This document shows, piece by piece, positions 28,129 to 31,460 of a DNA stretch of 32,000 bases. The notes under the pieces are model-generated. The model was not told the DNA's origin and did not search any database. It saw nothing but the letters and a program-made list of their open reading frames with translations. Both the position numbers and the translations under genes were made by a program. The stretch is from the NCBI GenBank assembly GCA_021498095.1, contig JAIZWK010000001.1, positions 210,001 to 242,000 on the forward strand. The letters are read 5' to 3'. Numbering within the stretch: the stretch's first letter is position 1; every line of letters begins with the position of its first letter. Origin of the DNA: Candidatus Harpocratesius repetitus. GTDB taxonomy: Archaea; Asgardarchaeota; Lokiarchaeia; Sigyniarchaeales; Promethearchaeaceae.

Positions 28129-29067
28129 TTGTATATCGGAGTAAAAGATCAAAAAATTGTGTTTATGCAGATGGAATTGGGGGATTTTTTTAACAAAACC
28201 ACTAAAAAAATATTTGATCTAAAAAACCCTAAGGAAAATCGAAAAGCATCTATAGTTTTGAAGCCAAAAGGATTAGCCAGATTCAATAAAAGACGAAAAA
28301 GAGAATTGAGGGCCAAAATTAAAGAGCAATTTCAACCCCGTTTTATCACAGTGGTAAATAATGAAAATCCAACTATCACCATTACTAAGAATTCAAATAT
28401 AGAAATTGAACAAAAAAGCAAACCAAAGAAGCGAAATAAGAAAAGAGAAAGAAAGAAAAAGAAAATAAAAAAAACTAATCACAGTTCCCAATTTTCTCCT
28501 CAATTATCAGAAAATCATCTATTAAGTGCTCAAACAACTGCTCAATCAAATAACCAAGATGATAGATCTAATTCACAATATCGAGATCTTTTAGCCTTTT
28601 CTTCTTCAAGATCAGTATCAGTTGATTCTTATCAGCCATCACCTCTGCCCACTTCGCAAGAAATTAACAAAAAGAAGGCGAAATCAACCCAAGTATCTCA
28701 AAAAGAAATAGAAGAACAAAAAAAGCCGCTAAAACTTTCATCTCCCATTGAATATACAATACCAGATAATATAACTAGAAAATTTGGTCACACAGGAGAC
28801 ATTCCTATTCCATGTCCCTATTGTAATGAAGAAATTTGGTTCTTTCCTGAAGATCTAGATAGTGTTCATTTCCATTCTACCAGACTTTGTGATTGTGGAG
28901 CAATTGTGCGAATTTCTACGAGAGAATATTATAATAAAATATTCTCAAATCTTTTTAATAAAGATAAATCTCAAGAAAAAAATTTAGACATTGAAATTCT
29001 AGCCACAGCATTGCATGATAATGAAGGAAATACAATATACAGTTATGGATTCAAACCAATAGAATGA
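28129..29067 (+). CDS. Hypothetical protein with a Lys-rich, Ser/Gln low-complexity middle and a C-terminal Zn-ribbon-like domain
   Basis: Long ORF containing KSKPKKRNKKRERKKKKIKK and CPYC...CDC. Confidence 0.65.
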   Translation: MYIGVKDQKIVFMQMELGDFFNKTTKKIFDLKNPKENRKASIVLKPKGLARFNKRRKRELRAKIKEQFQPRFITVVNNENPTITITKNSNIEIEQKSKPKKRNKKRERKKKKIKKTNHSSQFSPQLSENHLLSAQTTAQSNNQDDRSNSQYRDLLAFSSSRSVSVDSYQPSPLPTSQEINKKKAKSTQVSQKEIEEQKKPLKLSSPIEYTIPDNITRKFGHTGDIPIPCPYCNEEIWFFPEDLDSVHFHSTRLCDCGAIVRISTREYYNKIFSNLFNKDKSQEKNLDIEILATALHDNEGNTIYSYGFKPIE

Positions 29068-29097: not shown

Positions 29098-29553
29098 TTA
29101 AAGCCATCCTTGGATAGACCAAGTAAATTTTTCAGCCAAAGTCATCCGAATTTCAACTTTATTCGCAAGAGTAAACCCTGTGATAAGAGAATGAGCACGG
29201 TTATCTTTTAATTTTTCATGATTTTTTATGGGTTGATGAATAACATCTAAAGGTTGAACAGAACGAACCTGAAAAACCTCGCTCTGAATAACACCGTAAT
29301 TTGTTGATTCTTTTTTACCACGTTTAAGGGTTTCTTCAGCTGTTGAATAACGATCCCAATCTACAGAAACACCATCCCATTTTGCAAGATATTCTTCTTT
29401 CCAAGATTTTTGAGGTTCATTGAAAACATTTTGAGGTACTTTTTGCATATTGGGGAATTCTGAATCATTTATAACAAAATTCTTGTGGATTCTTCGAAAA
29501 ATAAAATCATCATCTGGAATTATCTCAATTTCCCATTCTTCACAATTATTCAT
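29098..29553 (-). CDS. Putative ADP-ribosyltransferase-fold toxin with an R-S-H pattern (third gene of the cassette)
   Basis: DDDFIFRRIH (R20), GVSVDW (S63), YGV, VIHQP and NRAHSLITG (H121); SD-like GGGGA precedes the ATG. The CDS is well supported, but the function is inferred. Confidence 0.55.
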   Translation of the reverse strand: MNNCEEWEIEIIPDDDFIFRRIHKNFVINDSEFPNMQKVPQNVFNEPQKSWKEEYLAKWDGVSVDWDRYSTAEETLKRGKKESTNYGVIQSEVFQVRSVQPLDVIHQPIKNHEKLKDNRAHSLITGFTLANKVEIRMTLAEKFTWSIQGWL

Positions 29554-29571
29554 CAGTAAATCCCCAAAAAT

Positions 29572-30183
29572 TTAATTAGAATTGTCAAAAACTTTAAAGA
29601 TCCAATTAATAATTGAACTTTCAATAGCACTTTCAGATTCAATTTTTAAAATGCTTTTAAGAAAAGGGCTTTTTCCTACGGCAATAATAGGGTCAGATGA
29701 TGATACATGAATTACCAAAAATATGCTAGAATTTCGCCAAGTAATGTCAATTGTGCCATCTGAAATAGGAAGAAGTGAAGGAATTGGAAGAAAACTTAAT
29801 AAAGGCATTAAATTTTTCTTAATTATTCCATTATAAACATTATTGATAATCTTTTCTGATAACATGAGAATTTCTGATTCAAATGCTGGTGCGCCTTGTT
29901 CATCCCAATTTTTTTTTAGTTGTCTGAGATTTTCAATATTATTCGAAATATGTCGATAAATTTCAATAAGACGATGATTATAGTAATTAATATTTTCTTG
30001 AGAATCAGAAATATCATTTGACTGCTCCCAAGAGGGAAAAAATAGATAATAAGTATAAGGATCAAAATAATAATCAGGACTAGAATCATTATATTGCATA
30101 TCAAACCAATTTATCTTTTTATAGGAAATAAAATTATCTTGATTCTTTCTTAGATAAACATTTTTTTTAAGATCAAGCATCAT
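29572..30183 (-). CDS. Uncharacterised protein with an LxxNWDxxGA...PxxDGxIxxxW domain; putative antitoxin (second gene of the cassette)
   Basis: LRQLKKNWDEQGAPAF and LLPISDGTIDITW; its start overlaps the upstream gene's stop by 11 nt. Confidence 0.6.
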   Translation of the reverse strand: MMLDLKKNVYLRKNQDNFISYKKINWFDMQYNDSSPDYYFDPYTYYLFFPSWEQSNDISDSQENINYYNHRLIEIYRHISNNIENLRQLKKNWDEQGAPAFESEILMLSEKIINNVYNGIIKKNLMPLLSFLPIPSLLPISDGTIDITWRNSSIFLVIHVSSSDPIIAVGKSPFLKSILKIESESAIESSIINWIFKVFDNSN

Positions 30184-30952
30184 ATTTCATCTCAACACGT
30201 AAATTATTAGTTATAAGTGATTCAAATTCATTAATTATATTTGCATGTAATATTTCAAGCATTTTTTCAAATAAATTTGGTTGGATTTTTATCACAAATG
30301 AGTCAAAATCAAGGAAAAATAAATCAAATTGCTGTTTATCAGGTCTGCTATATTGAAATGCATATTGAATTGTTAAAATTGTATTATCTGTACATTTTTT
30401 TCGTATTCGAATTCGATTTTCGACTAATTCTTCGATGGGATATTTTTTTATGTTAAAAATTGGAATAAAAAACCTTTCAAAAGATGAACTGCTAATATTA
30501 TCAATAAATTCCTTTTTATTTATATATCTCAACCCAATTCTCTCAAATCGAGGAATTCGCCATATTTTCTTAAAATTATCTATTAATCTGATTATTTTTG
30601 ATTTAAATCCAATTCTGTTTTGATGATTTTTCCATGAATGGTAATTGGATATTTTTAAAGTGATTTTATTTGAAAAAATACTTACTTCATCTTCATCATC
30701 ATTTGAAAACCGCCAAATTATTTCAGATTCAAGAGGATTAGTTTCAAAACCGTCAGAATCACTTTTTCCTTGAAATAGAAGGATTTGTGAAATGAATTCT
30801 TTATGAGCATATGGATATTGATCTTGGATTCTTTCCTGAAATTGTGCAATTTTATTATTTATATTCAATATCAAAGGATAACGAGCTTCAAAAATAACTT
30901 CATGCAAAATTGATTTTTGATAAACACGATTTGATTCATTGCTCATAATCAT
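30173..30952 (-). CDS. TIGR04255-family protein (first gene of the cassette)
   Basis: YQKSILHEVIFEARYP, FQERIQDQYP, RIGLRYIN, FLDFDSF and LHANIINEFESLIT follow the family pattern as I recall it. The start is more likely ATG 30952 or 30946 than the track's 31042. Confidence 0.75.
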   Translation of the reverse strand: MIMSNESNRVYQKSILHEVIFEARYPLILNINNKIAQFQERIQDQYPYAHKEFISQILLFQGKSDSDGFETNPLESEIIWRFSNDDEDEVSIFSNKITLKISNYHSWKNHQNRIGFKSKIIRLIDNFKKIWRIPRFERIGLRYINKKEFIDNISSSSFERFFIPIFNIKKYPIEELVENRIRIRKKCTDNTILTIQYAFQYSRPDKQQFDLFFLDFDSFVIKIQPNLFEKMLEILHANIINEFESLITNNLRVEMKYDA

Positions 30953-31362
30953 TATCCTTAATAAAATATATAAAGTGTAGGAAGAAAAAAGTTTTGCATT
31001 ATAATTTTTTAAATGTATTAATATATAAAACTTTATTAACATTTAATAGAGTGATAGAAAATTGGAAATCATGCATAGATTACACATTTACTATTATTCT
31101 ATCCAAATTTGAAACATGTAGATCAGAAATTTAGACCTCTTATTATCAAATTCAACAATTTTTTAACTAAAAATGATCAAAAATCGAACCATAATTATAT
31201 TTTTTTTTGCCAATTGATAATAATTCTTGGATAGATTTGATTATTGTAGGAAAAAGAAAGATAGAAATTGTAATTCAGTCAGAAATAAAGAAGTTGATAT
31301 AACTTTATATAATATATTTTTTTAATAATAAAAGAGTTAAAGACTAGTAAAATAAAATAATT

Positions 31363-31460
31363 TGGAGCCAGGTATGAGATTTGCACTCATGTAAAGAGGA
31401 TATCCGCAATACATACACGTATCCTGCAGTCCCCCGCCTTAACTACTTGGCTAACCTGGC
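31363..31460 (-). tRNA. tRNA-Cys(GCA) with a 22-nt intron at the canonical 37/38 position and encoded CCA
   Basis: Acceptor stem GCCAGGT/ACCTGGC, U73 discriminator and CCA; D-stem GCC/GGC; anticodon stem GGGGA/TCCTC; anticodon at 31427-31425; T-stem ATGAG/CTCAT. 98 nt minus the 22-nt intron gives 76 nt. Confidence 0.95.
31402..31423 (-). other. tRNA intron (GATACGTGTATGTATTGCGGAT) forming a bulge-helix-bulge-like splice structure
   Basis: C32-U33-G34-C35 pairs with intron GCGG, flanked by 3-nt bulges; intron hairpin AUAC/GUAU. Confidence 0.85.

Follow-up and report, generated by a model that had tools for sequence, protein, structure and literature searches.

A 32,000-nucleotide stretch of the closed, 4.36-Mb genome of Candidatus Harpocratesius repetitus (contig JAIZWK010000001.1, positions 210,001 to 242,000; hereafter the window) carries a genuine, patchily distributed cassette of three tightly packed minus-strand genes. 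The cassette is probably a horizontally mobile toxin-antitoxin-like module, possibly one for defense of the abortive-infection type. Its conserved first gene, g1 (30173..30952, minus strand), encodes a TIGR04255-family protein. It is followed by g2 (29572..30183, minus strand), coding for an acidic 203-aa protein with a domain designated NWD, the proposed antitoxin or adaptor, and by g3 (29098..29553, minus strand), whose 151-aa product is predicted to adopt an ADP-ribosyltransferase (ART)-like fold of the Tse2/KptA type and is the proposed toxin. According to this interpretation g3 would be the effector, g2 its neutralizer and g1 an accessory component.

The gene structure, taken from the list of open reading frames (ORFs) and from reading the sequence, agrees with the preliminary description of the window, which had reported three co-oriented ORFs joined by an 11-nt overlap and an 18-nt spacer. 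The frame of g1 is open to position 31042, which gives 289 aa from the first ATG (30173-31042) and 259 aa from ATG 30952; the start is probably ATG 30946, which yields 257 aa and is also the start of the 257-aa database form of the protein. An 11-nt overlap (ATGATGCTTGA, 30173..30183, minus strand) joins the end of g1 to the beginning of g2, an arrangement indicating putative translational coupling, and tight junctions of this type are also present in other TIGR04255 cassettes. The g2-g3 spacer (29554..29571, minus strand) contains a Shine-Dalgarno-like GGGGA element. A TATA-box-like element (TTTATATA, 30967..30974, minus strand) is located about 24 nt upstream of ATG 30946 and may serve as an archaeal promoter for an operon transcript with a short leader or none. 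Homologues of each of the three ORFs are conserved in other genomes, which identifies them as real genes, as opposed to chance frames in AT-rich DNA.

The pairing of g2 with g3 is conserved in both archaea and bacteria. Genome and metagenome collections, among them 301 Asgard genomes, contained about 25 distinct g3-family loci, whose hosts are Asgard archaea, Ca. Versatilivorator, Acidobacteriota, Saprospiraceae and unassigned metagenomes. A g2-family gene stands immediately upstream of the g3 relative in approximately 20 of these 25 loci, in archaea and bacteria alike, and most of the remaining ones lie at contig edges or are decayed copies. The pair thus displays the layout of a type II toxin-antitoxin system across distant genomes (adjacent, co-oriented, separated by an 18-nt gap, antitoxin first), and its recurrence supports the earlier proposal that the NWD protein is the partner of g3 in an antitoxin role. 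The gene upstream of g2 varies: it belongs to TIGR04255 in five distinct loci, to a second kind, termed type B, in five, and is absent or different in the others.

The complete trio also recurs in other genomes, as the proposal of the preliminary description requires. In a close relative, Harpocratesius sp., it is syntenic, lying between cysS/tRNA and pgi (L005, L006), with identities to the window of 95% for g3, 81% for g1 and 75% for g2; this pattern fits a constrained toxin accompanied by a faster-evolving antitoxin. In the congener metagenome-assembled genome HM1_B6_4 (G094) the three proteins are 59-65% identical to those of the window, and the trio lies at another locus, flanked by a histone gene and a VapBC-like PIN pair. 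Relatives of g3 occur in 8 of the 301 Asgard genomes, with up to three copies per genome, and 23 of the 301 carry TIGR04255; the congener G089, whose genome is 92% complete, yielded neither. These figures identify the behavior of an accessory gene and not of a core gene, in agreement with the patchy distribution anticipated earlier, and the cassette was apparently acquired horizontally. TIGR04255 was also detected in 28 of 301 Acidobacteriota genomes, so that its frequency among the genomes sampled is about 8-9% in both phyla that were searched.

Type B first genes, which replace TIGR04255 upstream of bacterial g2-g3 pairs, encode proteins of about 225 aa (L014:3832-4533, L015:3832-4533, L017:3749-4423, L023:881-1543 and L024:689-1393). 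They have no match in Pfam, NCBIfam or PADLOC and no likeness to the TIGR04255 profiles. On two metagenome contigs (L021:2674-3030, L022:1-480) g2-g3 adjoins a minimal nucleotidyltransferase gene (MNT-like, ...GSLAYGKPDADSDIDV...), a neighbor of the toxin-antitoxin type.

Sequence searches place g3 in no family of Pfam, NCBIfam, PADLOC or PHROGs; PF18648 gave no match even at an expectation value (E) of ≤1, tblastn against plasmids returned nothing, and searches of the PDB with g1, g2, g3 and a g2 profile yielded nothing significant. A structural model was obtained with AlphaFold2 (AF2) from an alignment with 15 homologues (mean predicted local distance difference test score, pLDDT, 87.2; predicted template-modeling score, pTM, 0.83). 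In a Foldseek search of the PDB the model gave weak rows only, the sensible ones being Tpt1/KptA and AvrPphF. Alignment to PDB representatives with VIA-align, a method independent of Foldseek, returned ART-superfamily chains in nearly all of the top 50 positions (Z 6.5 to 2.4), headed by KptA (Z 6.5), Tse2 (6.2 over 114 residues) and mouse Tpt1 (5.2), followed by AvrPphF (5.0), diphtheria toxin (5.0), VPA0770 (4.7) and DarT (4.7 and 4.5), and including the Rhs toxins TreX and TreTu, scabin, Tne2, NarE, pertussis toxin S1, RES, MbcT and Tse6. The AlphaFold database (AFDB) contributed a Tse2 ART toxin domain and an RHS tip, and the ESM Atlas returned RHS tips, PF18648 ADPRTs_Tse2 at a template-modeling (TM) score of 0.55, and DarT. 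The case that g3 adopts the split β-sheet core of ARTs is persuasive at the level of fold, and the model and the three structure libraries support the ART-like nature that had been proposed for this protein as an effector with an R-S-H signature.

The conserved residues of g3 were assigned to strands from the secondary structure of the model and not by superposition. Strand β1 carries F-R20-R-I-H, with the Arg present in 11 of 15 homologues, and β2 contains the invariant motif G61-x-S63-V-D65-W66. ARTs carry [QE]-x-E at the start of β5; the corresponding segment of g3 reads N118-R-A-H121-S, with H121 conserved in 12 of 13 sequences. The R-S-H signature thus comprises an Arg in β1, an invariant Ser in β2 and a conserved His at the start of β5. 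Further conserved residues are R78, R97 and H106-x-P108.

The g2 family, with 47 representatives at E≤1e-3, is defined by its C-terminal NWD domain, in which the alignment of relatives reveals the motifs NWDxxGA ... PxPxIxPxxDG.IDI.W. The protein is acidic, with an isoelectric point (pI) of 5.2 and a family median of 5.1. Its N-terminal ~65 residues, outside the NWD domain, are variable and aromatic-rich, and its length varies independently of the presence of TIGR04255. The sole library match of g2 is to the C-terminal part of the PADLOC candidate PDC-M32A (E 1.3e-5); no recognizable DNA-binding domain was found in g2 or g3 with Pfam and NCBIfam, and tblastn of g2 against phages gave no match. 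No fused forms appeared in a homologue search that covered 539-2000 aa only, and the long NWD proteins P0017, P0026, L033 (474 aa) and L038 (342 aa) have no TIGR04255 part, so that no g1-g2 fusion was found. The longer Asgard members of the family (L033:83-1507, 474 aa; L038:491-1519, 342 aa; L037:1893-2699, >268 aa) possess N-terminal regions without a match to TIGR04255 or to type B. Long antitoxins with an unassigned N-terminal part have been described among the three-domain class 8 HicB proteins (Gerdes 2024, PMC10865869).

Membership of g1 in TIGR04255 is full-length: the NCBIfam model is matched at E 6.6e-27 and 94.9 bits, far above the curated cut-off of 30, over model positions 2-252 of 252, as the preliminary description had stated. 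The AF2 model, built on a 24-sequence alignment (pLDDT 87.6), consists of two tandem β-α-β4-α halves. Its neighbors in AFDB are TIGR04255 entries (TM 0.74, E 6e-14), and Foldseek against the PDB returned S-adenosylmethionine decarboxylase (AdoMetDC) and TATA-binding proteins (TBP) at E 2e-4 to 1e-2. With VIA-align the highest scores were those of the spermine synthase N-domain (Z 8.2), McsB (8.1) and the catalytic domains of arginine and taurocyamine kinases (7.6), with 180-185 residues aligned for the kinases and McsB; AdoMetDC (7.7), Med18/20 (7.6) and TBP (7.3, 157 residues aligned) followed. The possibly duplicated SecB-like, chaperone-type fold that had been suggested for g1 is not supported by the model, a tandem double domain resembling TBP, AdoMetDC and guanidino kinases, with AdoMetDC, TBP, McsB and arginine kinase among the best matches. 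A SecB-like chain is absent among the matches listed by Foldseek and VIA-align, a listing that cannot exclude such a fold. Among the 24 homologues P47, Y143 and H236 are invariant, and R24, R142, D215 and D217 are frequent. Given the modeled fold and the invariant Tyr and His, g1 seems more likely to be a sensor, a regulator or an enzyme acting on g2 than a SecB-like chaperone. A control-free three-chain prediction of g2 and g3, scored for g1 as the partner, gave 0.01 against a pass mark of 0.32, a value that counts neither for nor against a complex.

The same genome contains a second, shortened TIGR04255 copy (G000:C1:4070568-4070960; L002:1477-1857, minus strand). Its frame of 126-153 aa matches model positions 114-249 with 38 bits and is followed by a 108-aa ORF; the copy is probably a decayed cassette.

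TIGR04255 genes of Asgard archaea nearly always head a tight trio, in which the other two genes vary. The third gene encodes a protein designated "QGD..CDL" in about 15 loci, a g3-type protein in 3 loci, a HEPN-like protein in 2 loci (Pfam E 0.016 for one; the other was assigned by BLAST similarity and has no Pfam match) and a GNAT protein in 1 locus (E 1.3e-6). Among Acidobacteriota, eight TIGR04255 trios have an NWD middle gene of the g2 family (hidden Markov model E 1.6e-7 to 7e-4), and their third genes carry g3-like, seemingly collinear motifs, a profile-profile comparison giving only E 0.064, which leaves homology unproven. Six further trios in this phylum combine a middle gene bearing a helix-turn-helix (HTH) with a "WRQGDC" protein, and one includes a PIN toxin (Pfam E 1.7e-11).

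The "QGD..CDL" family, the commonest third gene, comprises unannotated proteins 170-280 aa long, which carry QGD[IF] in their N-terminal part and [ST]xxCD[L] further on, and has no Pfam match. Its loci are L040-L045, L048-L050 and L053-L058 in Asgard archaea and L067-L070 and L074 in Acidobacteriota. The middle proteins paired with it often end in an acidic tail (...EPEE, ...EED, ...FEE).

The observations on which a mechanism can be proposed are the structure of the genes, the families to which they belong, the folds, their joint occurrence and their patchy distribution, and from them we infer toxicity, neutralization, the use of NAD+ and a role for g1. The effector would be g3, a divergent ART-fold protein of small size from the Tse2/KptA/DarT structural neighborhood, with Arg-Ser-His for the classical R-S-E. 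Its most likely action would be the NAD+-dependent modification or depletion of an essential target, a nucleic acid or a protein. The cognate neutralizer would be g2, whose C-terminal NWD domain would block g3 by binding to it, and the variable segment at the N-terminus of g2 may provide a link to g1. As for g1, it would be an accessory component, itself conserved, that combines with many different antitoxin-toxin pairs. Its tandem double domain, invariant Tyr and His and frequent Arg and Asp residues suggest a sensor or regulator that binds a ligand or macromolecule, or an enzyme controlling g2, and not a chaperone of the SecB type.

Several observations weigh against this interpretation. The structural Z-scores of g3 are modest, at most 6.5, although the ART fold is persuasive despite them because the libraries agree. 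Neither of the catalytic triads R-S-E and H-Y-E is present in g3, the classical Glu being replaced by His, and the β1 Arg is missing from four of the 15 homologues; for these two reasons enzymatic activity is unproven. The canonical catalytic Glu is also missing in Tse2 and Tpt1. In addition, the pI of g3 is 5.6, and the protein is thus not basic, and among its AFDB neighbors is one that bears the annotation of an immunity protein (Tle immunity protein 4 C-terminal domain). In bacteria, TIGR04255 homologues are in some cases found outside trios, beside genes of the housekeeping type, and the neighbors of the cassette in the window are cysS, tRNA-Cys and pgi, with no recognizable defense island.

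Other explanations assign a different role to g1. It is unlikely, in our judgment, that g1 is specifically the regulator or sensor of the module, acting as a nucleic-acid-binding autoregulator or as a trigger sensor that releases g3 upon a viral cue. The accessory-antitoxin-toxin order matches that of regulator-first tripartite modules (omega-epsilon-zeta, paaR-paaA-parE), the saddle-type double β-α-β4-α fold of g1 is common to the DNA binder TBP (Z 7.3, 157 residues), and g2 and g3 are devoid of a recognizable DNA-binding domain. By contrast, the TBP matches are no better than those to enzymes of the same fold, with a median pI of 5.95 the g1 family is not basic, and in some Acidobacteriota trios an HTH is already carried by the middle gene. 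Somewhat less likely still is a true analogue of toxin-antitoxin-chaperone (TAC) systems, in which g1 would be a dedicated chaperone that, in the manner of SecB-TA or CmdC, stabilizes an otherwise unstable g2, and loss of this support upon infection would free the g3 toxin. SecB-like chaperones join many unrelated antitoxin-toxin pairs in TAC systems, and the cassette shares with them the tripartite layout and a conserved third component that combines with many unrelated pairs; the variable, aromatic-rich extension of g2 ahead of its NWD domain is also compatible with this possibility. Nevertheless, no SecB or type III chaperone is among the top matches listed for the TBP/AdoMetDC/guanidino-kinase-like model of g1, and its invariant Tyr and His and frequent Arg and Asp resemble a binding or catalytic site more than a chaperone surface. 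Moreover, g2-g3 also occurs with the type B first gene or with none, and the length of g2 does not follow the presence of TIGR04255. The chaperone-antitoxin-toxin interpretation proposed in the preliminary description is retained in part: the ART-like gene 3 and its NWD partner are supported, whereas the SecB-like fold of g1 is not, and no homology to any component of CmdTAC or other TAC systems was found.

A further alternative dispenses with a toxin system altogether and regards g3 as a housekeeping-type NAD+-dependent or RNA-modifying enzyme, e.g., a KptA-like 2'-phosphotransferase, with g1 and g2 as cofactors. The NAD+-binding domain of KptA/Tpt1 is indeed the best PDB match of g3 (Z 6.5), and housekeeping genes and an intron-bearing tRNA flank the locus. 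However, only chain residues 86-180 align and the N-terminal RNA-binding lobe of Tpt1 is missing from g3, the cassette changes locus and occurs in 8 of 301 Asgard genomes, g3 is exchanged in TIGR04255 trios for PIN, GNAT and HEPN-like genes, and the fold of g3 is shared by Rhs toxin tips. This alternative appears very improbable. The toxin-antitoxin-like interpretation can also be extended, and here we hold more doubt than confidence: TIGR04255 may mark an extensive, so far undescribed group of tripartite conflict systems in bacteria and archaea, in which the double domain serves as a universal sensor or controller of almost any antitoxin-toxin pair (ART-like, PIN, HEPN, GNAT, "QGD..CDL"), and of which the Asgard copy would represent a new Arg-Ser-His ART clade with a new NWD antitoxin domain.

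A comparison with known systems reveals similarities of layout and differences of family. TAC systems such as CmdTAC combine an ADP-ribosyltransferase toxin, an antitoxin and a SecB-like chaperone in anti-phage defense. The cassette resembles CmdTAC of E. coli and the SecB-type HigB1-HigA1-SecB-TA of M. tuberculosis in its three, putatively co-transcribed genes and in the association of a conserved third component with different pairs, and it shares with CmdTAC an ART-fold toxin, as far as the model of g3 indicates. Unlike TAC systems, it shows no relation in sequence or detected fold to CmdT, CmdA, CmdC or SecB, its order is accessory-antitoxin-toxin, and no chaperone-addiction tail was identified. 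The likeness to omega-epsilon-zeta and paaR-paaA-parE consists of an accessory gene, an antitoxin and a toxin in tight coupling; the families are unrelated, however, and no DNA-binding domain was recognized in g1. Tse2 of the P. aeruginosa type VI secretion system (Tse2-Tsi2; PDB code 5ako; PF18648) is, like g3, a small ART-fold protein without the canonical catalytic triad, but g3 is no secreted cargo of such a system and its partner gene lies upstream and belongs to a different family (NWD). Structurally g3 is also close to KptA/Tpt1 and DarT, nucleic-acid-directed members of the ART superfamily, although it corresponds to the NAD+-binding lobe of KptA only, without the N-terminal lobe of Tpt1. 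DarTG is a toxin-antitoxin and defense module in which DarG is of the macrodomain type; g2, in contrast, has no match to a macrodomain family in Pfam.

A predicted defense gene also contains the NWD domain, since a stretch of ~80-100 positions at the C-terminus of PDC-M32A is matched by g2 and by its relatives in bacteria (E 1.3e-5 to 1.6e-6). The correspondence is restricted to the domain (profile positions 257-356 of 375, and 257-329 for g2 itself). A PDC-M32 system consists of full-length PDC-M32A together with PDC-M32B; here g2 alone matches, and partially, and g1 and g3 have no PADLOC match. PDC-M32 itself is listed merely as an uncharacterized candidate system (PMC12429752).

In the literature collection that was searched, TIGR04255 (CHP04255, IPR026349) is mentioned by no paper, and this kind of cassette is apparently undescribed. 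Contributions of this locus are the Asgard host, the pairing of an NWD with an ART-like protein, the evidence for the fold of g3, and the association of g2-g3 with a different first gene. If the proposed functions are correct, three uncharacterized families (TIGR04255, the NWD domain and a His-for-Glu, Tse2/KptA-like ART clade) would acquire a testable role, and g3 could provide a new NAD+-dependent modifying activity. The modular architecture would then constitute a new organizing principle for tripartite toxin-antitoxin and defense systems, parallel to the SecB-based TAC systems and structurally unrelated to them, and the sparse catalogue of Asgard conflict systems would gain an entry.

On its left the cassette converges on a 312-aa ORF (28129-29067, plus strand), as had been noted earlier, with 30 nt between the two stops. 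The product is rich in Lys, Arg and Ser, with a Cys-rich C-terminal segment (CPYC...C.C), and has no family match in Pfam or NCBIfam; the ORF is conserved directly downstream of pgi in the congeners G089 and G094. On the other side, a tRNA-Cys(GCA) gene that contains an intron and adjoins cysS (31366-31460, minus strand; Rfam RF00005, 46.8 bits, E 4.7e-8) is identified by its anticodon loop, CUGCAGG. Its 3' end lies 414 nt upstream of ATG 30952, in agreement with the ~410 bp given in the preliminary description. tRNA 3' ends are common insertion sites, and a tRNA-targeted insertion had been suggested for the cassette. This idea finds no support, since the window ORF list contains no integrase between pgi and cysS, the 3' part of the tRNA is not repeated at the borders of the cassette, and the direct or inverted repeats around it that might act as attachment (att) sites are only short, AT-rich and chance-like. 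For comparison with an empty site, the contigs of G089 end ~180 nt beyond the 312-aa ORF and 353 nt beyond the tRNA and do not overlap; in G094 a 182-aa zinc-ribbon gene lies downstream of tRNA-Cys in the place of the cassette.

The tRNA-Cys gene of the window was overlooked by ARAGORN and by an Rfam scan in gathering mode, despite scoring 46.8 bits against a gathering score of 29, probably on account of its intron. The orthologous gene has 73 nt and no intron in G089 and 105 nt in G094, lengths that identify the intron as variable within the genus.

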